Origin: Chloroflexota bacterium
Lineage (GTDB): Bacteria; Chloroflexota; Anaerolineae; J102
Direction of reading: 5' to 3'
DNA: 64,000 nt
Assembly (NCBI GenBank): GCA_013151415.1
Contig: JAADII010000169.1
Span: 2,545 to 66,544, forward strand
The translations under genes were made by a program, and so were the position numbers. Positions 13,415 to 50,911 of the stretch are shown here, one piece after another. Each line of letters begins with the position of its first letter. Position 1 is the first letter of the stretch. The notes under the pieces are model-generated. The model searched no databases, was not told the DNA's origin, and worked only from the letters and a program-made list of their open reading frames with translations.

Positions 13415-14506
13415 ATGAAACGCCCTTTAGTTGTCGCGGTGATCATCGTGACGGCGCTCCTCGTGGCATTGTTTTTCTGCGGTCTTTTTTCATCGCGGCC
13501 GCCCACGAAACAGCCTTCAAAGGTTTCTCTATCTTCTCTCGACCAAAACGCGCCCCCGGACAAGCCTTCGCCCACGCCCTGCAACGAACCATTGCCTGAA
13601 CTCTGCCCTGATTGGACGCCCGATCCCCAAGTGGCGGAAAGCATCGGCTCTTTTCCCGAAATCACGCACGAACTTTGTCCTCCGGACGCCGAGGCGACTC
13701 AAAAACCGATCTTTACAAACGAGGTGGTCTTTCGAGAAGGCAAATTCGTGCGACCGGGCAATTTCATCAACGAACAAGGAGAGCTTTTCAGCATTATCGT
13801 CAGTGGTGCAGATGAAATGAGCGTGCGTCAATACACCGACAACATGCTTATGTGCGCTGACGCATTTTTCGCAGACCAGGCGTCGCCAGCCAAACCAGAC
13901 GAGTTGGACGAGTTCGCCGCGAATTCGTTGGATGCCTTGCTCGCCATGCCCGAATCGCTGCTTATCGAGATCGATTACATTGCGCAGAGCGGCGTGACAA
14001 CGCCAGACGCGGAGAAGCTGCTCTATGCAATGGCCGCGCAAAATGTTTCCGTCCCTCCCTTGCCTTTGGCGGATTTCCAGAATCAACCCGACCCACTAAT
14101 CGTGCAATTGGAGCTTACTCTAGCCGATGAGGTGTTCTTGGAATTCCAAACCGATCGAATCGTCGATTTCATCATCGATCCCGCTATCAACCGCGCCGTG
14201 TATCATAATTATCGCTCAAAATGCCAGATGAGGGCTCGGGTGACCGTGCGCATGGCCGAATCGCAGGGCGCGGGCAGTGTGTCGGCCCTTCTCTACCGAA
14301 ATGGATTTCCCGTACAGAGTCGCATATTGAACAAAGACGAAGGGATCGTCAAGGCGACCTTGCGTCATTCCAGTGCGCCCCAGCACACCACCTACGATTT
14401 TGGCGTTTACGGGCGTCGAAACCAAAGCCGTTATCGCATTAGCGGATCGTGGGTCAAATCCTACAATGCCTCGGTGCCCTCGGGCGGCGGCTCGGTGTGC
14501 CCCTAG
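13415..14506 (+). CDS. Hypothetical secreted/membrane-anchored protein
   Basis: A strong RBS (GAAGGAGGTGG) precedes it. An N-terminal TM/signal segment (VVAVIIVTALLVALFFCGLF) is followed by a Pro-rich linker. No recognisable catalytic motif. Confidence 0.5.
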   Translation: MKRPLVVAVIIVTALLVALFFCGLFSSRPPTKQPSKVSLSSLDQNAPPDKPSPTPCNEPLPELCPDWTPDPQVAESIGSFPEITHELCPPDAEATQKPIFTNEVVFREGKFVRPGNFINEQGELFSIIVSGADEMSVRQYTDNMLMCADAFFADQASPAKPDELDEFAANSLDALLAMPESLLIEIDYIAQSGVTTPDAEKLLYAMAAQNVSVPPLPLADFQNQPDPLIVQLELTLADEVFLEFQTDRIVDFIIDPAINRAVYHNYRSKCQMRARVTVRMAESQGAGSVSALLYRNGFPVQSRILNKDEGIVKATLRHSSAPQHTTYDFGVYGRRNQSRYRISGSWVKSYNASVPSGGGSVCP

Positions 14507-14612: not shown

Positions 14613-15371
14613 ATGGTCATGAACGAATCGACAGCTTTACGAACCGAACTGAATGAGCAAAAAGCGTTCAAGCAAAAGCTGGAGCGCGAGAAGCTGACCG
14701 CGGGCGCGGTGGAACGCGCGCGCATCGAGATCGAGATCGAACGCGCCGACAAGCGCATTCGCGAGCTCGAGTGGGCTCTGGACGCGCTGGCCGAGGAACG
14801 AGAACGGATGCAGCAAAAGGACAAGGACAAAGAGAAAACCCCGGGCGGGGAAATCACGCGGAAGCGCGAAAAAGCTGCTCGAAGCAATGCTCATGTCTAT
14901 GACGTTTATATCAGCTTCGCGGAAACCGAACCGGATGCGCGTTGGGTGTGGGAGACCCTCATTCCGCGGCTGGAAGCAGAAGGTTTGCAAGTGGCTGTGG
15001 CCGAGGACGTGGTGAGGCCGGGCGTGGCCAGGGTGACCGGGGTCGAACAGGGCGTGCGCGAGGCGCGGCGCACGCTCATTGTGCTGACGCGACATTATAT
15101 CGACAATCGCTGGGCGCAGTTCGATAGTATCCTGGCCCAAACCCTTGGCTGGCAAGAAGGCGCGGCCCGCGTGATCCCCGTTCTGTTGGAAAGCATCGAT
15201 CTCGACCATCCTCCAGCCTGGATCCCCCATCGCCTCGGCCCCAATTTCGTTCGCCCCATCGATCTGAGTCCGCAGGCAATCGCCAGGGGACGATCCAATC
15301 CTCGCCGCGACCCCTGGCGCCGTCTTGTGGAAACGCTGAAATCGCCTTTACAGCCGCTTTTCAAGCCTTGA
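14613..15371 (+). CDS. Coiled-coil - TIR domain protein
   Basis: An N-terminal charged coiled coil (about 90 aa, EREKL...EIEIERADKRIRELEWALDALAEERERMQQ) is followed by a TIR_2-like domain (YDVYISFAETEPDARWVWETL...RTLIVLTRHYIDNRWAQFDSILAQ). Confidence 0.6.
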   Translation: MVMNESTALRTELNEQKAFKQKLEREKLTAGAVERARIEIEIERADKRIRELEWALDALAEERERMQQKDKDKEKTPGGEITRKREKAARSNAHVYDVYISFAETEPDARWVWETLIPRLEAEGLQVAVAEDVVRPGVARVTGVEQGVREARRTLIVLTRHYIDNRWAQFDSILAQTLGWQEGAARVIPVLLESIDLDHPPAWIPHRLGPNFVRPIDLSPQAIARGRSNPRRDPWRRLVETLKSPLQPLFKP

Positions 15372-15385
15372 ATCATTCATTTATC

Positions 15386-16042
15386 ATGGGCGCTCGATCT
15401 CTCAGGACATATGTGCTTTTGAAAAACGCCGCGAATGTGGGATTGTGTTTCGAGCATCCCCCTTGGTGGGATGTGAGTCGGTTGGTCGCGCCGCTTCCCC
15501 ACCGTCGCGTAACGTTGTCGCCCGATGACCGAAGCGCATGGCTCCTTTCTTGGGCGCATCTTCTCACCTGGAGCAAACAACAAGGCCAGTGGGTTGAGAA
15601 TGTCCCTTATATGAAAGCGCCATGCGAAGCGAGCTCGCAGGAGCGACGCGGCGTGCTGCGCGCCTTGCGGCAGGCCGAGTGGCTCGTCATCGATCAGGAG
15701 CGGGTCTGGGTTATCCCAAAGGAGCCGGGCGAGGCTTGCCGCATATTCGAAGGTCCGTCCTGGTGGAGCGCGCTCGCGGCCGAACACCTGGACCTACTCT
15801 CGCAGCGTCGCATCGATGTGAACAACCCGCTCTGGGTGGATTATGTGTATCTGTTCACGCCTGAAGAGGCCCTGACCATCGACGCCGCGGCCCGGGAGCG
15901 CTGGAAAGCTTATTGTCGCGAGGTCTATTCTCGGAAGCTGACCCGGCATGAGATCAGCGAAATGGCCCGATTCAAACAGGCGCTGCAACAGGCGGTCTGG
16001 GTGACGCTTTATGACTACGAATGGGAATCCGGGCTGGCGTGA
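15386..16042 (+). CDS. Hypothetical protein, Trp-rich, no recognisable domain
   Basis: It begins 14 nt after the TIR gene stop (or overlaps it from a TTG at 15368). Codon usage looks coding. Start and authenticity are uncertain. Confidence 0.4.
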   Translation: MGARSLRTYVLLKNAANVGLCFEHPPWWDVSRLVAPLPHRRVTLSPDDRSAWLLSWAHLLTWSKQQGQWVENVPYMKAPCEASSQERRGVLRALRQAEWLVIDQERVWVIPKEPGEACRIFEGPSWWSALAAEHLDLLSQRRIDVNNPLWVDYVYLFTPEEALTIDAAARERWKAYCREVYSRKLTRHEISEMARFKQALQQAVWVTLYDYEWESGLA

Positions 16043-16149
16043 ACCTGTTGTTTGTGTGGCCAGCGCATGACGGAGATGAACGAAGCGACCATCGTCGAGT
16101 TAGAGGCAATCCCGCCCGAAACCAAGCAAAAGTCGGAGAGCACGCAACC

Positions 16150-16821
16150 ATGACCACAGTACGCGAACAAGCGCTCACCTGTGCGGTGTGCGGACACACC
16201 GAGAAGCACACCGTGCTTGTTTCCTCGAGCGCATTTGGCGCGTCCGATCTGGACACGCGGCCGCCGCCATTGATGCGATTTACATTGCCCTTTCAGATTC
16301 AATGTTGCCCCGCATGCGGGTATTGTGCGCCCAATATATCCCATGCGCCGGATCGCGATATCGCGGCCTCGATTGTGCTGAGCAAGGACTACCAGGCTCA
16401 GCTAAGGGACGCGGAGCTTCCCTATCTGGCGAGCATGTTTCTATGCGCGAGCGACATCCAGAAAGCATTGGGAAACGATGCGGATGCAGGATGGTTCGCG
16501 CTTCGCGCCGCGTGGGTCTGCGATGATGAGGAGCGCGATCAGGGGGCGAGGCAATGCCGGCTGCGAGCCGTGGAGCGATTCACCCAAGCGCGCGAGCGCG
16601 GCCAGCCATTCGCGGACCAACCAGGCGCAGAAGAAGCTATTCTCACCGACCTGTTGCGTCGTAGCGGTCGTTTCGACGAAGCCACGGCCATGATCCGGCG
16701 CGGCCTGGCGCGAACGCCCGAGGACGTGATTCGCGAGGCGCTTCTGTTCCAACGCGCGTTGTGTGAACAAAGGGATGTGGCGCGCCATACTTTGGACGAA
16801 GTGTTGAAGGGTGATGCGTGA
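16150..16821 (+). CDS. Hypothetical zinc-ribbon protein (CxxC...CPxC) with helical C-terminal region
   Basis: The ATG at 16150 has a GGAGAG RBS. It carries CAVCGH...CCPACGYC. Its stop overlaps the prmC start region. Confidence 0.45.
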   Translation: MTTVREQALTCAVCGHTEKHTVLVSSSAFGASDLDTRPPPLMRFTLPFQIQCCPACGYCAPNISHAPDRDIAASIVLSKDYQAQLRDAELPYLASMFLCASDIQKALGNDADAGWFALRAAWVCDDEERDQGARQCRLRAVERFTQARERGQPFADQPGAEEAILTDLLRRSGRFDEATAMIRRGLARTPEDVIREALLFQRALCEQRDVARHTLDEVLKGDA

Positions 16822-28451: not shown

Positions 28452-28536
28452 CGGAGTGCGTAACATGAGTGGTTGCATTTCTTACCCATCTCGTCTCACA
28501 TAAACGAGGTGACTCTTCGCAAGGAGTGATTTAATT

Positions 28537-31500
28537 ATGATAGGTGCCCGAGGACGATATATTTCGTTGATGGTGTTGGTGATGGGCGTATTGTTCATGT
28601 TGTTGGCGCCGGCCCTTGCCACGCCGGCCTACGCCCAAGGCGGTCCTCCGGTGGTGTTCACCGGTAATGTCCCTATGGATTTTCCCGCGGGTTCGGCCTT
28701 TCTATACGATCCGGGCCTCTCGCCTCCCGCCAATCCTCCCGAATGGGATGTTTCCATGCCCAACACCTGGCCTCTGGAGCAACAAGTGAGCGGTTGGGAC
28801 ATGGAGTATCTCGCCTTCTTTTATGATGGCCCTTCTGATGTCATGTATGTGGGAATTCAGTACTTCGATGCAGGCACGGTGTTCGAGTTTTTGGGCGGCG
28901 CGGTGACTCATACATTGATTTCCGATGTCATCGCCGGCGATGCAGACCATGATGGGGATCCGGGAGGCGCAAGCACCTATTTGCAGGCGTCGGGCGGCGT
29001 GGATATGCCGGATATTGGCAATGGGGAAGCCATTGTGTTGATCATCGACACCAACCTGGACGGCGCGGGCGACGCGATTGTAGGCGTGCCTCAGACGGGT
29101 GACGTCACCAACTTCCATATCGCGCAATTCAGCCCGCCTGATCCTGCGAATCCACTGGCCGATCCGGCCAATTCGTTTGGCGCGCCCCTCACCGGCTCGA
29201 CGGCCACGCTGTATGCCAACCCCACCATCACCCAACCCGATCTGGAATTCAGCATCAGCAATTTTTCCAATCTGCCCAATCTCAATTTCGACCCCGCGGT
29301 GGATTGCGTTTTCGAGGCCAACTTTCTTGCTTTTAGCGGCAGCATTGTGGATGTAGCGCCGGGCGAAGACTATCTCCCCGTGCCCGAACAGCTTGCCAAC
29401 TTCAGCTTCGACGTGGTGCGACCCGAGGCCGAGGTGACGAAAAGCCTGGTCAACACGACGCCTATCGAGAACGGCGATACGGTTACTTATGAAATCGTCA
29501 TCAACAATCCGGGCTGCTCCACCATGAGCGCGATTCCGCTCACCGACACCTTCGATGCAAACATTTTGCAATACGCAAACGCGACCGTCGCCCCCGATCT
29601 TGTAGACAACCTGAACGGATTGCTGGTCTGGAACGATGTCACCACGACATTGGGCGATGTGCTCACAGGGAACGCAATCACCATCACCGTCGAATTCACG
29701 GCCACACAAGCCACGCCCGTGGGCTCGCCTACGGTCAACCAGGCCAGCGTGGCCGGCGCCACCGACACCAACGGTTATGAAGCGCCCGCCTCTTCCTCGA
29801 GCACAGGTGTGGATGTATATGAGGCCGGCCTGAGTCTGGTGAAGACGGCCGGGACAGTGGGCGATGGGGAAATCTGGTATGTGGACGCCAGCACCGCGCC
29901 CACTAATGTGACTTTCACCTATGTTCTAACCAACACCGGCAACACCTATCTCACCGATCTCACCATCACCGATGACCACGGCACGCCGAGCAATTCGGGC
30001 GATGATGTCACCATAACCTCAGTCGAGTGCCCCGCCCTGGCCGGGCCCCTTGCACCGAATGGGTCGGTCACCTGTACGGCCGACATTTCTGTCAGCGGAC
30101 CATTCCCGGTGACCAACACGGCCACGGTTACAGGAACGCCAAGCAACGAGGTCGGCTCGCCTCTCGCCGGCATCACCCCGCCCAGCGCGGGCGACGATGC
30201 CGTGGTGGACGCATTCACGCCCAATCTCGCATTCACCAAGCTGGCCGGTAATGCGCCCGATGGCGGCGTTTACGAGATCACCAGCCCCGAGATCGTCACT
30301 TACACCTACATCATCACCAACACCGGCGATAGCTACCTGAGCAGCATGGTCATCACCGATGACCTGGGCACGCCGACCGACCCTGTCGATGACCTGGTCA
30401 TTGATTCAGGCTCATGCGCCGGTTTGGCTGGGCCGCTCGCGCCCTTGGGCTCCGTAATCTGTACGGCTTTCATCTCGGTGAACGCCGACGTCACCAATGT
30501 GGCCGCGATCTCGGCCAACCCCACCGATAACTTGGGCGCGGACCTGCCCGGCCTGGACGATCAAACCGCGCAGGACGACGCCATTGTCAACCTCATCGCG
30601 CCGGATTTGAGCTTGCAAAAGACGGTCTATCTCGGCGACGACAACGGCGTTTCTTGCCCGGGCGGCGAACTTGTCTTCGCTCCTTCCGGCTACGTGGTCA
30701 CTTATTGCTTCGAAGTCAGCAACATTGGCGACACTTATCTGGATAGCATTGTCATCACCGATACTGCGCTCAGCATCCCCACCTCGACCACACCCATCCT
30801 GCTTTCCGGGACAACCCCGCTCGCGCCCGGCAACACAGCTGTTTATTACATCACCGACACCATCGCCAGCGACCTGATAAACACGGCCCTGGTGAGCGCC
30901 AATCCCACCGATAACCTCGGCGCCGACCTGCCCCAATATCCCGACAATCCCACCGACTCGGACACAGCCGAGGTGCAGGTCGCGCCCGATCCCACCGTTT
31001 CTGTGAGCAAAACCCTCCTCCCTCCCCTGGTGACGCCCATCGCCGTAACCGACACCATCACCTTCGAGGTGGTCATCACCAACACTGGCCAAACCACCCT
31101 GACCACCTGGTCGGTGGTGGATGACGGCTTCACCACCGGCATGAGCCTGGTCGCGGCCACTCCCACACCCGATAGCGCGGGCCCGCCCATTGCATGGAAT
31201 GCATCATTGCCCGCGCTCGCGGCCGGAGATTCCTTCACCATCACAGTGCAGTTTTTGGTTACGGCTTCGGGAACGCATACAAACACGGTCACGGTGAACG
31301 GCCAAGACGAATTCGGTCGATCCATAACCGAGACCGTCGCCTCTTCAACGGTGGACTTTGTCGATCTCGATTACGGCGATGCGCCCGATCCCACCTATCC
31401 CACCCTTTTGGTCAACGACGGCGCCGCGCATGCGTTGGTGAGCAACGGGCCTTTCATGGGCGCGTGCATCGATCCTGAAACCAACGGCCAGCCCTCCGCC

Positions 31501-34500
31501 AACGCGGACGGCGACGATGTGAACGACACCGCCATAGGGTGCGCCGATGACGAAAATGGCGTCACGCTGCCCACGCAGCTGCTCCCCGGCGACAACCAGG
31601 CGCAGGTGACGGTCGATCTGAGCAATTCACCGCAGGCGTGTTTGCTCAACGCCTGGGTCGATTTCAACGGCGACGGCGTTTGGAGCGCGGGAGAGCAAAT
31701 CTTCACCGACGAACCACTCTCGTTGGGCGTGAACAATCTCACCTTTGCGGTTCCCGGCGACGCGGCGAGCGGAACCACCTACGCCCGCTTCCGATGCAGC
31801 ACTCAAAGCGCGCTGGGCGTCACCGGTCGGGCGAATGATGGCGAGGTGGAAGATTACGCGGTGGAGATAGCCGCCGGCGTAGACTATGGCGACGCTCCCG
31901 ATCAACCGCCCGTGCTCAATTATCCCACTCAGCTCAGCAGCAATGGCGCCGGTCACACCCAGGTCGCGAACGGGCCCTTCATGGGCGCGTGCGTCGACGC
32001 GGAGCCGGATGGCCAGGCGGGATTGAACGCGGATGGCGACGATGCCAACAACACCATCCCCGGTTGCTCCAATGATGAAGATGGCGTCACGCTGCCCACG
32101 CAGCTGCTCCCCGGCGACAACCAGGCGCAGGTGACGGTCGATCTGAGCAATTCGCCGCAGGCGTGTTTGCTCAACGCCTGGATCGATTTCGACGGCAGCG
32201 GCTCGTGGGAGAACGACGAACAGATATTCGTTGATCAGACCCTTTCCGTGGGCGTCAATAATCTCACCTTTGCGGTTCCCGGCGATGCGGCGAGCGGAAC
32301 CACCTACGCCCGCTTCCGATGCAGCACTCAGAGCGGCTTGGCCGTGGACGGCATCGCGCCCGATGGCGAGGTGGAGGATTATGTGGTGGAGATCGCCCAA
32401 CCCGTGGACTATGGCGACGCGCCGTCGAGCTATCCCACCCTTCTCGCCAATAACGGCGCGCGGCATACGCAGACGGCGAACAGCCCCTTCATGGGCGCGT
32501 GCGTCGACGCGGAGCCGGACGGTCAACCGAACGCTCTCGCGGATGGCGACAACGCCAATGACACCATCGTCGGCTGCACCAACGATGAAGATGGCGTCAC
32601 GCTGCCCACGCAGCTGCTCCCCGGCGACAACCAGACGCAGGTGACGGTCGATCTGAGCAATTCGCCACAGACGTGTTTGCTCAACGCCTGGGTCGATTTC
32701 AACAGCGATGGCGTTTGGGGCGCGGGAGAGCAAATCTTCACCGACGAACCGCTTTCGGTGGGCGTGAACAATCTCACCTTTGCGGTTCCCGGCGACGCGG
32801 TGGGCGGCGCCACCTACGCCCGCTTCCGATGCAGCACCCAAAGCGCTCTTGGCCCAGATGGGCCGGCTTCGGATGGCGAGGTCGAGGACTATCTTGTGGA
32901 AATCGCCACGCCCGTAGACTATGGCGACGCGCCGGATACAGGACAGGGATACAACTATGCCACGTTGCTCAGCAACGGCGGCGCCGCCCATTTGCTGGTG
33001 AACAACAACCCCTTCATGGGCGCATGCGTGGATGCCGAGCCGGACGGTCAGCCCAGTGTTGGCGCCACCGATGATGACAATGCGAACACGATTTCCGGTT
33101 GCACCGACGATGAAGACGGCGTCACGTTGCCCTCATCGCTCATCCCCGGCCAATTATTGACTCCGGTCACGATTGATTTGAGCAATTCGCCGCAGACATG
33201 TTTGCTCAACGCCTGGATCGATTTCAACCGCAACACGCGCTGGGATGCAGACGAACAGATATTCAGCGACCAGGCGCTCAGCGTGGGCGTGAACAACCTC
33301 ACCTTCGCCGTGCCCGCTGACGCGGCAGCCGGAACGACCTACGCCCGCTTCCGGTGCAGCACGTCGGGCGGCATTGGCCCTGATTCTCTGGCCGCGGATG
33401 GCGAAGTGGAAGATTACGCCGTCGTGATCGAGCCGACGGGAAGCATTGGCGACTATGTCTGGTACGACGCCAATAGCAATGGCGTGCAAGATGTGAGCGA
33501 ATCCGGCATCGCCAATGTGAGAGTGCGGCTCTATGCTGATGATGGAGATGGGAATTTCGAGCCGGGCGGAGATGACGCTTTGCTCGATGAAACCTACACC
33601 GACGCGGATGGCGGTTACCTTTTCCGCTATCTCGTTGCCGGCGATTACTTCGTGCATGTGGATGAGACTTCGCCTGCGCTGAGCGGCCTCTCCTTTGTTT
33701 CGGGACCGCAAAGCCCAGGCAACCCGCACCCGCTCATTTCCTTGGGCTCGGGGCAAGACTATCGCGACGCCGACTTTGGTTATGTTGCGGAGCCCCTGCC
33801 GGGCAATGCAATGGTCGGCGACACCGTTTTCTATGATGGGAATGGCAACGGTCTGCAAGACGCGGGCGAGCCGGGCATTGCGGGCGTCACGGTCGTTGTG
33901 CAAGATAGCGGCGCCAACCCCATCGGCTCGGCGGTCACCGATGACAACGGCCATTATCTCATCGAGGTTCCGGCCGGATCGGGATATTCGGTCGCGCCCG
34001 TGAATCCATCGGGGTTGACCCCCACCACGCCCCAGCCGATCTTATTGCCCACCTTAAACGACGGCGACCAATATCTCGATGCGGATTTCGGCTTCGATAG
34101 CCCCGACCTGGGCCAAATCGATGGCGTGGTGTTCGACGACAAAGACAACGACGGCGTCTATAGCCCCATCACCGACACGATCATTCCCGGCGTCAGCGTG
34201 CAACTGATTCGCGATGACGACGGCGATGGCGTGTGGGATGCCGGAGAACCGGTCCTTGCCTCTGTATTAACGAATGGCTCGGTCGATGGAAACAACAACA
34301 CCTACAGTTTCAGCGGTCTGCCGGCCGATGACTATCTGGTGCGCGTTTCGGATACGCACAATGTATTGAGCAGTTATGTCGTGGGCGTGTTGGGCGCGCC
34401 CGACACCGACCATAACAGCCAGGCCCAACCCTATTCCGTGGCTCTACCTGTGGCCGGCATCGCGCTTACAGCGGATTTCGGATACTTCCAGGCGGGCGGA

Positions 34501-35499
34501 GGCGTTGCCGGCGATGCAACGGGCGTCATCGGCAATCAGGTGTGGCATGATGTGAACGGCAACGGTCTCTACGAGCCGGGCAACGGCGAAAGCGGCATTG
34601 CCGGCGTCACAGTCGAGTTGCGCGTGGGCGCGTCGGTGGTCGCGACGACCACGACCGGCGCCTCGGGCGGGTACGTATTTACGAACCTGGCGGCCAATAC
34701 ATACAACGTGCGCGTGACCGATGACGCGGGCGTGCTGACGGGCTATCTGGTTTCGCTACTCGGCCCCAACCCCGGCCAGGATAACAACAACCAAAGCCAG
34801 CCTTACACCATCACTTTGGCGTCTGGGGCGTTCAACTTCACGGCCGATTTCGCCTACGCGCGACCGGTCACCATCACCGGCTTCACCTACTTCGATGTCA
34901 ACGGAGATGGCGCCCGCCAGGGCGGCGAACCGGGCGTCAGCGGCATTCCCATTACACTGACCAATGTTTCCACCGGTCAGGTCGTGAGCACCACGCTTTC
35001 ATACAATGGGCCTTACACATTCGCGAACCAACCTCCCGGAACCTATCGTCTTGACGCGCCTTCCACAGCGCCGGGCCTGTTGCGCACATCGTTATCGCCA
35101 TTGCAGATCACGGTCCTAAGCGGCGGGATCAGCCCAGACAACGACTTCGGATACATTGCGCCCACCAATGTCACATTGGTCGATTTTACAGCCTTGGCCG
35201 GAACAGAGGGCAATGTATTGCGCTGGCAGACCTCCTACGAGAACGAGGTGCAAGGCTTTGTGGTCTTCCGTTCACCCACGCCCAATGATGGTTTTCAGGC
35301 CATATCCGAGCTCATTTCTGCAAGTGGAAATCCGGCTGGTTCCACATATGAATGGGTGGATACGACCGCGAAGCCCGGCGTAAACTATTGGTATAAGCTG
35401 CAAAGTTGGCCCGACGGCGAGTTCTTCGGTCCTGTGCCTTTGCGCGACGACCCCGGCGAAGCCGCTCCCCAGTTATACCTGCCCTTTGTCACGCGGTAG
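28537..35499 (+). CDS. Giant (2320 aa) secreted surface/adhesin-like protein: signal peptide, DUF11-type repeats, 5 GEVED-like modules, SdrD-B/Cna-B-like repeats
   Basis: AAGGAG RBS and a signal peptide (MLLAPALATPAYAQG). It has repeated DUF11-like segments and 5 modules of the form DYGDAPD..YPT..GA.H...FMGACVD.E.DGQ...GDD.N...GC.DDEDGVTLP..LNAW.DF..DG.W...EQIF.D..LSVGVNNLTFAVP.DA..G.TYARFRCST...DGEVEDY. Beyond these lie DYVWYDANSNGVQD-type SdrD-B-like repeats. Confidence 0.8.
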   Translation: MIGARGRYISLMVLVMGVLFMLLAPALATPAYAQGGPPVVFTGNVPMDFPAGSAFLYDPGLSPPANPPEWDVSMPNTWPLEQQVSGWDMEYLAFFYDGPSDVMYVGIQYFDAGTVFEFLGGAVTHTLISDVIAGDADHDGDPGGASTYLQASGGVDMPDIGNGEAIVLIIDTNLDGAGDAIVGVPQTGDVTNFHIAQFSPPDPANPLADPANSFGAPLTGSTATLYANPTITQPDLEFSISNFSNLPNLNFDPAVDCVFEANFLAFSGSIVDVAPGEDYLPVPEQLANFSFDVVRPEAEVTKSLVNTTPIENGDTVTYEIVINNPGCSTMSAIPLTDTFDANILQYANATVAPDLVDNLNGLLVWNDVTTTLGDVLTGNAITITVEFTATQATPVGSPTVNQASVAGATDTNGYEAPASSSSTGVDVYEAGLSLVKTAGTVGDGEIWYVDASTAPTNVTFTYVLTNTGNTYLTDLTITDDHGTPSNSGDDVTITSVECPALAGPLAPNGSVTCTADISVSGPFPVTNTATVTGTPSNEVGSPLAGITPPSAGDDAVVDAFTPNLAFTKLAGNAPDGGVYEITSPEIVTYTYIITNTGDSYLSSMVITDDLGTPTDPVDDLVIDSGSCAGLAGPLAPLGSVICTAFISVNADVTNVAAISANPTDNLGADLPGLDDQTAQDDAIVNLIAPDLSLQKTVYLGDDNGVSCPGGELVFAPSGYVVTYCFEVSNIGDTYLDSIVITDTALSIPTSTTPILLSGTTPLAPGNTAVYYITDTIASDLINTALVSANPTDNLGADLPQYPDNPTDSDTAEVQVAPDPTVSVSKTLLPPLVTPIAVTDTITFEVVITNTGQTTLTTWSVVDDGFTTGMSLVAATPTPDSAGPPIAWNASLPALAAGDSFTITVQFLVTASGTHTNTVTVNGQDEFGRSITETVASSTVDFVDLDYGDAPDPTYPTLLVNDGAAHALVSNGPFMGACIDPETNGQPSANADGDDVNDTAIGCADDENGVTLPTQLLPGDNQAQVTVDLSNSPQACLLNAWVDFNGDGVWSAGEQIFTDEPLSLGVNNLTFAVPGDAASGTTYARFRCSTQSALGVTGRANDGEVEDYAVEIAAGVDYGDAPDQPPVLNYPTQLSSNGAGHTQVANGPFMGACVDAEPDGQAGLNADGDDANNTIPGCSNDEDGVTLPTQLLPGDNQAQVTVDLSNSPQACLLNAWIDFDGSGSWENDEQIFVDQTLSVGVNNLTFAVPGDAASGTTYARFRCSTQSGLAVDGIAPDGEVEDYVVEIAQPVDYGDAPSSYPTLLANNGARHTQTANSPFMGACVDAEPDGQPNALADGDNANDTIVGCTNDEDGVTLPTQLLPGDNQTQVTVDLSNSPQTCLLNAWVDFNSDGVWGAGEQIFTDEPLSVGVNNLTFAVPGDAVGGATYARFRCSTQSALGPDGPASDGEVEDYLVEIATPVDYGDAPDTGQGYNYATLLSNGGAAHLLVNNNPFMGACVDAEPDGQPSVGATDDDNANTISGCTDDEDGVTLPSSLIPGQLLTPVTIDLSNSPQTCLLNAWIDFNRNTRWDADEQIFSDQALSVGVNNLTFAVPADAAAGTTYARFRCSTSGGIGPDSLAADGEVEDYAVVIEPTGSIGDYVWYDANSNGVQDVSESGIANVRVRLYADDGDGNFEPGGDDALLDETYTDADGGYLFRYLVAGDYFVHVDETSPALSGLSFVSGPQSPGNPHPLISLGSGQDYRDADFGYVAEPLPGNAMVGDTVFYDGNGNGLQDAGEPGIAGVTVVVQDSGANPIGSAVTDDNGHYLIEVPAGSGYSVAPVNPSGLTPTTPQPILLPTLNDGDQYLDADFGFDSPDLGQIDGVVFDDKDNDGVYSPITDTIIPGVSVQLIRDDDGDGVWDAGEPVLASVLTNGSVDGNNNTYSFSGLPADDYLVRVSDTHNVLSSYVVGVLGAPDTDHNSQAQPYSVALPVAGIALTADFGYFQAGGGVAGDATGVIGNQVWHDVNGNGLYEPGNGESGIAGVTVELRVGASVVATTTTGASGGYVFTNLAANTYNVRVTDDAGVLTGYLVSLLGPNPGQDNNNQSQPYTITLASGAFNFTADFAYARPVTITGFTYFDVNGDGARQGGEPGVSGIPITLTNVSTGQVVSTTLSYNGPYTFANQPPGTYRLDAPSTAPGLLRTSLSPLQITVLSGGISPDNDFGYIAPTNVTLVDFTALAGTEGNVLRWQTSYENEVQGFVVFRSPTPNDGFQAISELISASGNPAGSTYEWVDTTAKPGVNYWYKLQSWPDGEFFGPVPLRDDPGEAAPQLYLPFVTR
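31365..33415 (+). repeat. Four tandem 506-528-bp coding repeats (GEVED modules) with near-identical 100-bp cores
   Basis: DYGDAP-encoding starts at 31373, 31879, 32407 and 32917. The core ggcgtcacgctgcccacgcagctgctccccggcgacaaccag(g/a)cgcaggtgacggtcgatctgagcaattc... is almost identical at 31559, 32083 and 32590. Confidence 0.8.
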
Positions 35500-37875: not shown

Positions 37876-37898
37876 TTGACAAGTGAATAGTCATTCAC
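37876..37898 (+). promoter_or_regulatory. TTGACA -35-like hexamer followed by the inverted repeat GTGAAT-agtc-ATTCAC, just upstream of the PIN/TRAM gene RBS
   Basis: Read directly. No convincing -10 at the canonical spacing, so this is a possible operator. Confidence 0.3.
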
Positions 37899-37918
37899 AT
37901 AGGAGGTTGCTTCCTCTC

Positions 37919-38980
37919 GTGAACATTGATCGGATTTTTCGCATTCTAGGACTCATTCTTTTTGCAATCATCGGGTGGCAGGCGGGCGTTATCTTCACCC
38001 AAACCAGCGAACCCTTCACCGATCTCGAAGCGCTCAAATATATCATCCCACTAACTCTGCTTGGCGGCGCGCTGGGGTGGGTCATCGCTCCCTGGATTTC
38101 GACGCGACCGGCCAAACTGGCGGTTCGCAGCTTTCGCAACATCCCCATTGAAGACATCATCGCCGGAGCCATTGGCTTGGCCCTGGGCTTGGTGGTGGCC
38201 GCGCTTCTGGCAATACCGCTTTCGCAGTTGCCCTCGCCTTTTGGCTCCATCTTACCTTTCGTGGCCAGCATTGTGTTTGGTTATATGGGCGCCATGGTGA
38301 CGGTTTTACGCCGCGAAGACCTGACCCGTTTGCTATCTCGCACCAGACGCACCCCCGAACCGAGCATCGAAAAAACCATCACTGGCCCTCGACCCGTCTT
38401 GCTGGACACCAGCGTGATCATCGATGGCCGCATCGCCGACGTGGCTCGCACCGGTTTCCTGGCCGGGCCGCTACTGGTCCCGCGCTTTGTGTTGGCCGAA
38501 CTGCAATACATAGCAGATTCGGCCGACCCTTTGCGCCGCGCGCGCGGGCGCCGCGGCCTGGAGGTGTTGGACGAACTCCAGAACATGGATGAGCCAAAGC
38601 TGGAAATCACCGACCTCGACGCGCCCGGCGTACGCGAAGTGGACGAAAAATTGATGACTTTGGCCCGACAATATGATCTGGCCATTGTAACCAATGATTA
38701 CAATCTCAATCGCGTGGCCATGCTTCAGGGCATCACGGTGCTCAATCTCAACGATCTGGCCAACGCAATGAAAGCCATCTATCTGCCTGGCGAGCGTCTT
38801 CGTCTCAGGGTCATCCAGGAGGGCAAGGAATATGGCCAGGGCGTGGGTTATCTCGATGATGGCACCATGGTGGTGGTGGAAAACGGCAACCGTTATATTG
38901 GCCAGGAAATCGACCTGGTGGTGACCAAAGTGCTGCAAACCAGTGCTGGCCGCATGATCTTCGCCGCGCCGGCAAAGTAA
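37919..38980 (+). CDS. Membrane-anchored PIN/TRAM-domain protein (YacL-like)
   Basis: N-terminal TM helices, then a PIN domain ([13 protein letters not shown]...) and a C-terminal TRAM-like beta domain. The GTG start at 37919 is 12 nt after AGGAGG; ORF-max is 37883. Confidence 0.65.
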
Positions 38981-38991
38981 AGGGAGATATT

Positions 38992-40401
38992 ATGTCTTTA
39001 CGAGTTTACAACACCCTCAGCCGAAAGAAAGAAGAATTCAAAACGCTGGAGCCGGGCGTGGTGCGCATGTATGTGTGCGGTCCCACGGTGTACGATGACG
39101 CGCACATCGGCCACGCCATGTCGGCCATTGTGTTCGATGTGATCCGACGCTATCTAGAATACAAGGGGTATGAAGTCATCCATGTCATGAATTTTACAGA
39201 CGTGGATGACAAAATCATCAACCGGGCGCGTGAAACAGGCCAAGAACCATTGAAGTTGGCGCAATATTACATCGATCGCTTCATGGAGCACATGGCCCAA
39301 TTGCACATCAAGCCGCCCACAATCATGCCGCGCGTGTCCACCACCATCGATGAAATCATCGACATGGTGCAGACGCTGATCGAGCGCGGCTATGCGTATG
39401 AGTCGGAGGGCGACGTCTATTTTCGGGTGCGGATGGACGATGATTACGGCAAGCTCAGTCGCCGTAAACTGGAGCACGCGGTGAGCAGCGAACGCCAACG
39501 CTTTGGCGACGAACTGAAAGAGGACCCGGCCGATTTCGCCTTGTGGAAGGCGCAAAAAAGCCCAGACGAACCGGCCTGGCCTAGCCCCTGGGGCATGGGC
39601 CGTCCGGGCTGGCATATCGAGTGCTCGGCCATGGCGCGGCGCTATCTGGGCCCCACCATCGATATTCATGGCGGCGGGACAGACCTCATCTTTCCCCACC
39701 ACGAAAATGAGATCGCGCAAAGTGAAAGCTGCAACGCCGCGCCCCTGGCCACTTATTGGCTGCACAACGGCATGTTGCAACTACGCGGGGAAAAGATGTC
39801 CAAGTCGCTGGGCAACATCATCTCCATCGATGAATTGCTTTCACAATATGAAGCCGATGTCTTCCGCATCCTGGTGCTGGGCTCGCATTATCGCAAGCCT
39901 TTGGCTTATGACGACGAGGTGATGGAGCAGGCGCGTCGAGGATTGGAGCGGCTACGCGGTGCGTTGCGCCCTCCAACCGGCGAGAAAACCGAAGGGCCGG
40001 AAGTTGAGGCGTTGCAAGAGGCTGTACAGCTGGCTCGCGAACGTTTCGAGGCCGCGATGGACGATGATTTCAACACGGCCGGCGCGCTGGGCCATCTCTA
40101 TGACCTGGTGAAAGCCATCAACACCGCGCGCGCCGCGGGCATAGGCGGCGAACCTTTCGAGAAAGCGCAGAGCGAGCTCAAGACCCTGGCCAGCGTGCTT
40201 GGCTTGCAATTGGAAACGCAAGCTCGAGCCGCGTCGGACGCCGCGCCATTCATCGAATTGTTGCTCGAGGTGCGTTCGACACTGCGCAAACAAAAGCAAT
40301 GGGACCTGGCCGATTATATTCGCGATGGCCTGGCCAAGCTCGGCGTGCAGGTGGAGGATACTCGCGATGGCTCCACCTGGCGTTGGGAAAAGCGCGAGTA
40401 A
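38992..40401 (+). CDS. cysS: Cysteine--tRNA ligase
   Basis: [14 protein letters not shown] (HIGH) and KMSKSLGN (KMSKS). 469 aa. Confidence 0.9.
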
Positions 40402-50065: not shown

Positions 50066-50911
50066 TCATGAAAACAGGAAGATAAGACTACCGAAGATTA
50101 AGGCGTCGGCCACCGCAGCCAGCAGAACTTGGGAAGACGAGCGCGCATCCACCAACACTGGCGTCAGTCCCCGCCATTCAAGGCGCAGCACCGGCCCTGC
50201 AAACCAGGCGAACACAAGCCCGCCCAGCAGTCCGCCCATGTGGCCCCAATTGTCGATGCCGGGCGAGAGGCCAATGAGAAAATTGATCCCGGCCACAACC
50301 GCGATATTGATGATGGCGCGCTGAGTTCGCTCTCCACCGAAAAAATCGCGATTATGATAGAGCAGCGCGCCCTGCGCGGCGAGAAGGCCAAAAACGGCCG
50401 TGGACGCGCCAAGCGATGGTTGAGGAGTGAAGATCATGGAAAAGACATTGCCCGCGAACCCGCCCAACAGGTACAACAGCAAAAAACGCCAGGGCCCATA
50501 GAAGCGCTCTAAACCCGGGCCCAGAATGTATAGCGCGTACATGTTGAAGCCAATGTGCATGAGCGAACCGTGCAGCAGGATGGGCGTGATGAGCCGCCAA
50601 TATTGACCCGCGGCAATAAGTTCGTTGGATTTGATCCCCAATCCGGCGGGAAGGTCGAACCCATAGACGTTTTCGCTCAGCCATTGCAACAGATAAACCA
50701 CAACCGTGACGCCCATGATCGCATAGGTCATCCTGGGCGAACGGCCAGATGCGCCCAGCGTCATATGAATGGGAGATTCCGCGGCGACGGACTCGTCGGG
50801 CGGTTCAGGAGGCGTTGTTTGATACATGAGAAAAAGGGGAGAAGGAGCGGCGCATAAAGCCGACGTCAGGGAAAAGAATGATTGAACGCATGCCAATAGA
50901 CTCTGCGCCAT
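50066..50911 (-). CDS. Rhomboid-family intramembrane serine protease
   Basis: Ser motif GASTAVFGLL, His motif WGHMGGLLGG, and 6-7 TM segments. The start is ambiguous (50911 or the internal Met at 50827). Confidence 0.65.
   Translation of the reverse strand: MAQSLLACVQSFFSLTSALCAAPSPLFLMYQTTPPEPPDESVAAESPIHMTLGASGRSPRMTYAIMGVTVVVYLLQWLSENVYGFDLPAGLGIKSNELIAAGQYWRLITPILLHGSLMHIGFNMYALYILGPGLERFYGPWRFLLLYLLGGFAGNVFSMIFTPQPSLGASTAVFGLLAAQGALLYHNRDFFGGERTQRAIINIAVVAGINFLIGLSPGIDNWGHMGGLLGGLVFAWFAGPVLRLEWRGLTPVLVDARSSSQVLLAAVADALIFGSLIFLFS

Follow-up and report, generated by a model that had tools for sequence, protein, structure and literature searches.

How could a protein of 2320 residues be held on the cell surface when its carboxyl end carries none of the established anchoring signals, and how stable is the array of repeats from which much of it is built? 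Both questions are raised by a single gene within a 64,000-nucleotide stretch of DNA (hereafter the window) from a metagenome-assembled genome (MAG) of a Chloroflexota bacterium (GenBank assembly GCA_013151415.1, contig JAADII010000169.1). The gene occupies positions 28537-35499 of the plus strand as one open reading frame (ORF) of 2320 amino acids (aa) plus a stop codon. This ORF is genuine, and a protein database search found its product to be identical to NCBI NOX63596.1 (GXP42_16860), a "hypothetical protein" of a Chloroflexota MAG. In our view the product is probably a single-chain surface protein that a Caldilineales-type Chloroflexota bacterium exports via the Sec pathway and that resembles fibrillar adhesins; it ends in a C-terminal cassette and contains an array of GEVED modules whose proposed history is given below. 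Surface location and adhesion are inferred, and so are the part played in anchoring by the short C-terminal motif (the YLP-box) with which the cassette closes and the way in which this motif works.

The C-terminal cassette consists of an FN3-like beta-sandwich domain (aa 2209-2299; positions 35161-35433, plus strand), a disordered linker (aa 2300-2312, the LRDDPGEAAPQ region; 35434-35472, plus strand), and the YLP-box LYLPFVTR-COOH, a putative ultrashort C-terminal sorting motif (35473-35496, plus strand). The FN3-like domain has no Pfam match and was recognised through an AlphaFold2 (AF2) model of the last 112 residues, which shows an FN3-like sandwich (pLDDT 78.6, pTM 0.75), and through Foldseek, whose top PDB matches for it are FN3 domains (TMq about 0.5). 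Residues 92-106 of the same model have pLDDT values below 50 and correspond to the linker, which places about 15 residues between the FN3-like domain and the box. The box was identified with the NCBIfam model NF053834 ("YLP-box putative sorting motif"), which matched the last nine residues (152-160 of the last 160 aa) at 12.0 bits against a curated cut-off of 10. By that cut-off the protein can be assigned to the YLP-box group, an assignment that rests on the looser of the two available models (NF053834). The stop codon comes directly after LYLPFVTR, so that the box stands at the extreme C-terminus, and its proline lies four residues from the free C-terminal arginine, with no basic tail of the LPXTG or PEP-CTERM type.

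Other anchors were sought in the same protein. The tail reads PQLYLPFVTR and contains neither an LPxTG motif nor a C-terminal transmembrane segment, the last 160 aa gave no PEP-CTERM match in NCBIfam even at E<=10, and no SLH or other S-layer domain was detected by Pfam and NCBIfam over the whole protein. SLH, T9SS, LPXTG, and PEP-CTERM anchors were each rejected on the basis of the Pfam and NCBIfam searches. A sequence-only reading of the window had described the protein as ending without a recognisable sortase or PEP-CTERM signal; it was correct with respect to LPxTG and PEP-CTERM, but it overlooked the YLP-box detected by NF053834.

The same ending recurs in other proteins. Five large repeat-protein homologues (P0002, P0009, P0015, P0018, and P0027) share it. 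With the C-terminal 131 aa as query, a word-indexed search returned a single match; an exhaustive profile search (A1), built from seven box-bearing endings, found 57,272 proteins with a generic FN3-like domain. Among the best 148 of these 57,272 matches, 28 proteins, ranging from 157 to 4653 aa, terminate in the box, and the profile match extends to the C-terminus in the box-ending cases listed. A genome scan run with a subfamily alignment (A2) yielded 16 loci; the MAGs that carry them are all assigned to Caldilineales, Anaerolineae, or Chloroflexota, and no genome contributed more than four. Fourteen of these loci have a complete 3' end, and in every one of the fourteen the stop codon stands at the end of the box or no more than two residues beyond it. 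Alignment of 46 distinct tails gave the consensus [RKT][LVI][FY][LIVM]P[LFIM][VI]xR-COOH, in which the proline is invariant by construction, as the pattern used to collect the tails itself required it; exactly four residues follow the proline in 38 of the 46. The stricter YLP-box model, NF050076, matches the relative P0164 (tail QVYLPLVRR).

Passengers carried on the cassette in these relatives include peptidase C25, a GEVED array, DUF11 arrays, and SdrD_B arrays. One metagenomic protein (P0079, 1651 aa) combines a gingipain-like peptidase C25 and its propeptide with an FN3-plus-YLP-box end (TIFLPIALKQ), and its tail thus indicates that the box is not confined to stalk-repeat proteins. Most of the apparently full-length relatives have N-terminal signal-like segments, all of the named relatives belong to the Chloroflexota, and among the proteins found the FN3-like neighbour is obligatory beside the box. 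By three lines of evidence (the large homologues, the profile search, and the genome scan), the YLP-box is a real and positionally fixed feature. The FN3-like domain also precedes other C-terminal endings, as in P0054, P0078, P0084, P0090, and P0123, which are among the best A1 matches; some A1 matches end in ...KKMVLLK, which resembles a T9SS-type tail, and in others the ending has a hydrophobic stretch with basic residues after it. The FN3-like domain may be a general module that forms the last domain before an anchor.

At the opposite end of the protein, sequence inspection and a hydrophobicity scan identified a Sec-type signal peptide (aa 1-33; positions 28537-28635, plus strand) with a basic n-region, the hydrophobic core LMVLVMGVLFMLLAPALA, and a cleavage-type site AYA|Q; the peak Kyte-Doolittle hydrophobicity of the N-terminus over 12 residues is 2.99. 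The protein is therefore predicted to be exported via an N-terminal signal peptide, one of the features by which the YLP-box group is defined. Behind the signal peptide lies a head domain (aa 34-295; 28636-29421, plus strand) that has no Pfam or NCBIfam match even at E<=10. Only six homologues of the head, of 234-461 aa, were recovered by word-indexed search. The five in which the N-terminus is included all start with a signal peptide, and their endings vary, with one T9SS tail and two tails composed of a hydrophobic stretch plus basic residues. The acidic motifs IAGDADxDGDPG and PDLEF are conserved across this family. The AF2 model of the head is poor (pLDDT 62.7), and a comparison of the model with the PDB gave no convincing fold match (best E = 0.01, TM 0.27). 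Judging from these searches, the head appears to constitute a rare, unclassified family, and is presumed to be the ligand-binding end of the protein, a putative function.

Between head and cassette, the protein is composed of three successive blocks of repeated domains. Six DUF11/DUF7507 Ig-like repeats (aa ~296-942; 29422-31362, plus strand; Pfam DUF7507 four times, DUF11 twice, and TIGR01451) recur with a period of about 387-402 bp (direct-repeat family D3). They are followed by four tandem GEVED modules (31363-33435, plus strand), delimited by four Pfam GEVED stretches, motif positions, and alignment. The GEVED family (PF20009) scores 210.1 bits over these four stretches, against a Pfam gathering cut-off of 24.4, and each module is built from a DYGDAP...DEDGV half and a 78-aa half that corresponds to Pfam GEVED, with four conserved cysteines. 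The third block comprises five SdrD_B repeats, which are Cna-B-like and of prealbumin fold (aa ~1634-2208; 33436-35160, plus strand; five Pfam stretches, 214 bits); overlapping Pfam matches to CarboxypepD_reg and SpaA cover the same region. Of 24 cysteines in total, 16 occupy the four conserved positions of the GEVED modules and six occur in close pairs in the DUF7507 repeats, a pattern that fits an extracytoplasmic protein. The signal peptide, the DUF11-type repeats, and the SdrD-B/Cna-B-like repeats recognised in the sequence-only reading are thus borne out by these matches. Its proposal of an adhesin or S-layer-associated protein holds in its first part, as the signal peptide, stalk domains, and paired cysteines are consistent with a large protein of surface or adhesin-like type, while the S-layer association is unsupported in view of the missing SLH and S-layer domains.

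From this order of domains a working model can be formulated. Once the signal peptide had been removed, the acidic N-terminal domain would form the distal, presumably ligand-binding end, followed by a stalk of about 1900 residues made up of the six DUF11/DUF7507, four GEVED, and five SdrD_B domains. The FN3-like domain, the flexible linker, and the YLP-box would form the proximal end, with this cassette as the tag that holds the protein on the cell envelope. Attached by its C-terminal end, the protein would then form a fibril on the surface of a filamentous Chloroflexota bacterium, and the free C-terminal peptide would be read by a separate partner, either an enzyme or a docking protein. Recognition of a free C-terminal peptide is favoured because the tag has no membrane-spanning segment and keeps a fixed distance to the carboxyl end. 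With considerably more reserve than for the architecture itself, we suggest that the FN3-linker-YLP-box cassette is possibly the end recognised as substrate by an envelope-attachment system that is specific to the Chloroflexota and differs in kind from all of the tripartite signals, that its reader (a transpeptidase or docking protein) is not encoded beside the substrates, and that the protein studied here is among the largest cargoes.

Several observations weigh against this interpretation of the protein and its tail. The NF053834 match is marginal by itself (12 bits, E = 0.17), the stricter model NF050076 (cut-off 15) gave no match for this tail, and only one ORF in the 64-kb window bears a YLP-box. 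A literature search for the YLP-box gave no paper or experiment. No sortase-like or other partner gene was found among the neighbours of the gene in the window, and an all-against-all ORF comparison of the 16 related loci revealed no conserved neighbour gene; the only recurrent ORFs were the giant repeat proteins and their shadow ORFs. The head falls into none of the known adhesive families and has only a poor model, so that adhesion is argued from architecture. Finally, all copies of the sequence trace to one short-read MAG contig, which is also the sole source of the module number.

Two side observations concern the surroundings of these tags. In several Caldilineales and Anaerolineae MAGs (L005, L008, L009, L013, L014, and, downstream of the match, L002/L003) the next gene encodes a further giant repeat protein, forming tandem gene arrays. 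Rhombosortases act on another class of C-terminal tags. At a distance of 14.5 kb, downstream of the gene studied here, the window contains a gene for a rhomboid-family intramembrane protease (50066-50911, minus strand; Pfam Rhomboid, 127 bits), and nothing ties it to the YLP-box.

Given that the tail lacks a transmembrane helix, a lipobox, and any known wall-binding domain, and that the box is only about 8 residues long, the protein might alternatively be exported and released, as a component of the matrix or filament sheath or as a free binding protein, in which case its ending would be a signal for folding, processing, or secretion quality and not an anchor. The occurrence of the box on a peptidase C25 is compatible with secreted enzymes, and the failure of synteny to yield a partner gene points in the same direction. 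We nevertheless consider release unlikely. A tag that is strictly C-terminal, carried by many unrelated passengers, present several times per genome, and confined to one phylum shows the pattern known for sorting signals and expected of a sorting tag; a putative sorting role is also the hypothesis of the NCBIfam curators, as expressed in their label for the motif; and a stalk of ~2000 residues is most sensible with one end fixed. Attachment to the envelope through the C-terminal end is for these reasons preferred here. The sequence-only reading had called the anchoring of the protein unresolved; this is correct only in part, as the tail carries a recognisable, NCBIfam-curated YLP-box that is strictly C-terminal in relatives.

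The second question raised by the locus concerns the GEVED block, which had been described from sequence alone as five modules forming near-identical 520-bp tandem repeats prone to recombination. Four modules were found instead, in agreement between the four Pfam stretches and four DGEVEDY motifs: M1 (31363-31875, 171 aa), M2 (31876-32400, 175 aa), M3 (32401-32910, 170 aa), and M4 (32911-33435, 175 aa), all on the plus strand. The near-identity had been overstated, as whole modules are 67-80% identical to one another at the DNA level. Tandem Repeats Finder reported no repeats, a result that is uninformative because the ~520-bp period exceeds its 500-bp limit. The claim that roughly 100-bp stretches are almost identical in three of the modules, on the other hand, was well founded: M1-M3 have two cores in common, about 105 and 81 bp long, with an identity of 88-100%. 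Core 1 (M1 31552-31656, M2 32077-32181, M3 32587-32691; plus strand) reaches 98-100% identity in 60-nt windows, and core 2 (M1 31726-31806, M2 32251-32331, M3 32761-32841; plus strand) was delimited by module alignment and synonymous-site identity. The longest exact runs measure 73 nt between M1 and M2 (within core 1), 51 nt between M2 and M3, and 44 nt between M1 and M3.

Conserved amino acids could by themselves give rise to conserved DNA, and codon identity was therefore computed only at codons encoding the same amino acid in both modules, with cores compared with the remainder of the modules by one-sided Fisher tests. Codon identity in the cores amounted to 92% for M1-M2 (59% elsewhere, p = 2e-5), 93% for M1-M3 (58% elsewhere, p = 5e-6), and 88% for M2-M3 (63% elsewhere, p = 0.002). 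As codons for the same amino acid match more often inside the cores than outside them, the identity of the M1-M3 cores goes beyond amino-acid constraint. M4 uses other codons for similar peptides (codon identity within the cores 67-72%). In the stretches between the cores the likeness is of M1 to M3 and of M2 to M4, and module lengths show the same alternation; the similarity is a mosaic, with M1 and M3 alike across alignment columns ~300-390 and M1 and M2 alike in the cores only.

The simplest history suggested by these alignments is that a unit of two modules was duplicated and that gene conversion then acted locally. Duplication would have produced the likeness of M1 to M3 and of M2 to M4, and later intragenic gene conversion would have homogenised the two short cores in M1-M3. 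The same process could also alter the number of modules, and the shared runs might in principle permit unequal recombination and hence copy-number instability of the array, as the sequence-only reading had predicted. No close relative with which module number could be compared was present in the protein database, where the only close match is the identical sequence; after it, the best match reaches 51% identity over 35% of the query, and there is no orthologue. An exact look-up of the encoding contig and a metagenome scan with aa 1-942 likewise recovered no relative.

It might be objected that the near-identical cores of M1-M3 reflect constraint, either strong amino-acid conservation together with codon preference or a constraint acting on the nucleotide sequence, and that the array is stable and not prone to recombination. 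The cores are indeed also the best-conserved protein segments (TLPTQLLPGDNQ..., NNLTFAVPGDA..TYARFRCS), M4 retains much of the same core peptide, and a module identity of 67-80% is low for an array that is actively recombining. The excess identity, however, sits at synonymous positions (88-93% against 58-63%, with p down to 5e-6), and M4 codes for similar peptides with other codons (67-72%), which indicates that codon preference alone is insufficient to explain M1-M3. Together with the mosaic distribution of similarity noted above, this leaves constraint quite an improbable explanation, and duplication followed by gene conversion is retained.

Module number and order could also be an artefact of short-read metagenome assembly, in which modules were collapsed, expanded, or swapped via shared k-mers. 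The sole source of the sequence is one 71,314-bp MAG contig, present in both the Joint Genome Institute (JGI) and the NCBI collections, and exact runs of 44-73 nt in three modules can cause a de Bruijn graph to branch. Typical reads, and the large k-mers of the final assembly rounds, are however longer than such runs. Furthermore, the flanks of the cores are 20-40% divergent, which makes every module unique, the reading frame is unbroken over all module junctions, and P0180, another YLP-box protein, likewise has four GEVED stretches. We therefore regard misassembly as very improbable and treat the four-module array as the working structure. More generally, repeats that look near-identical by eye can be short homogenised cores within otherwise diverged modules, and this configuration implies both a lower expected instability and a lower risk of assembly error.

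With respect to the gene itself, two start sites have been called, at 28537 by NCBI (2320 aa) and at 28570 by JGI (2309 aa, 11 residues shorter). The NCBI start is favoured because a Shine-Dalgarno-like AAGGAG, read from the sequence, is present at 28521-28526 on the plus strand, 10 nt 5' of the ATG at 28537. We take the JGI and NCBI records to represent one assembly. Long antisense ORFs within the gene (e.g. 31627-32991, minus strand, 454 aa) were dismissed as shadow ORFs, as they match no family above cut-off. No terminator-like site was found 3' of the gene, and no Rfam family reached its gathering score in the 64-kb window.

Flanking genes encode an Atg22-like MFS transporter, an IndA-like enzyme, an ArsR-type regulator, MoaA, CoxG, an SDR, a PIN-TRAM protein, and CysRS, and the more distant genes of the window are likewise metabolic or housekeeping in nature. 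The PIN-TRAM domain gene (37883-38980, plus strand) lies directly upstream of cysS (38992-40401). Further away, a TIR-domain protein (Pfam TIR_2, 58 bits) is encoded at 14613-15371 on the plus strand, with three co-oriented neighbouring ORFs that have no Pfam family (13415-14506, 15368-16042, and 16021-16821); together these four genes may form a small defence-type cluster.

The gene adds one giant repeat protein to a well-populated class, and its immediate consequence is mainly a better annotation of a "hypothetical protein". The protein is real but ordinary for its kind, and carries a putative tag that has already been catalogued. The envelope architecture of the Chloroflexota is still debated. 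In surveys of fibrillar adhesins, about half of the candidates had no known anchor, and the existence of undiscovered anchors was suggested (PMC8286594). Here, the "missing anchor" corresponds to a catalogued, little-studied ultrashort tag confined to the Chloroflexota. The present analysis makes this tag testable by defining its strict C-terminal register, its proline and terminal arginine, its FN3-like neighbour, its diverse passengers, its several copies per genome, and the lack of a linked enzyme. The interest that remains lies in the mechanism of the YLP-box.

Comparison with characterised systems places the protein as follows. Fibrillar adhesins are ordered as head, stalk, and C-terminal tag (PMC8286594), and GEVED is counted among the stalk domains (PMC10952558). 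The repeated known stalk domains by which fibrillar adhesin-like proteins are recognised (Monzon et al. 2021, PMC8286594) are present, and none of the anchors listed in that survey was found in this protein, which leaves the putative YLP-box as the sole candidate. Like the Gram-positive fibrillar adhesins (the MSCRAMMs SdrD and SdrC of Staphylococcus and CshA of Streptococcus), the protein has a signal peptide, an N-terminal non-repeat region, a repeated stalk, and a C-terminal tag; it shares B-type repeats with SdrD, and with CshA it shares GEVED, a domain that was defined on CshA. It differs from these adhesins in belonging to another phylum, in lacking LPXTG, a transmembrane helix, and a basic tail, and in having neither a known adhesive A-domain nor the CshA NR2 domain. 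The MSCRAMM models scored far below their cut-offs (SdrD, NF012181, 128.7 against 2500 bits; SdrC, NF000535, 111.9 against 1700 bits), and the B repeats are therefore all that it has in common with SdrD and SdrC. The protein consequently falls outside the LPXTG sortase substrates, including the MSCRAMMs SdrC and SdrD, outside the PEP-CTERM/exosortase substrates, and outside the SLH S-layer proteins.

At the level of the tag, the closest parallels are the tripartite signals of the LPXTG/sortase, PEP-CTERM/exosortase, GlyGly-CTERM/rhombosortase, and MYXO-CTERM/myxosortase systems. These systems too involve a short C-terminal homology on many unrelated exported proteins, several per genome, within one lineage. 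In contrast to them, the YLP-box has neither a hydrophobic membrane-spanning segment nor a basic cluster after its signature and ends four residues past the proline, and no cognate enzyme was found near this gene or in the 16 loci. We know of no cognate enzyme for the YLP-box.

The nearest counterparts are the YLP-box proteins of the Chloroflexota themselves (NF053834, ultrashort_CTERM; NF050076, sort_motif_YLP), for example MCO6450571.1 from Caldilineales (P0188), MEM7130359.1 (P0149), and HLE28333.1 from Anaerolineales. Unlike these, the protein described here is without an orthologue, has a rare head domain, and carries a tail that scores only 12 bits. It nevertheless comes from the same phylum and shares with them the signal peptide, the long stalk of DUF11, SdrD_B, and GEVED domains, the FN3-like last domain, the short linker, and the C-terminal Φ-Φ-P-Φ-Φ-x-R.

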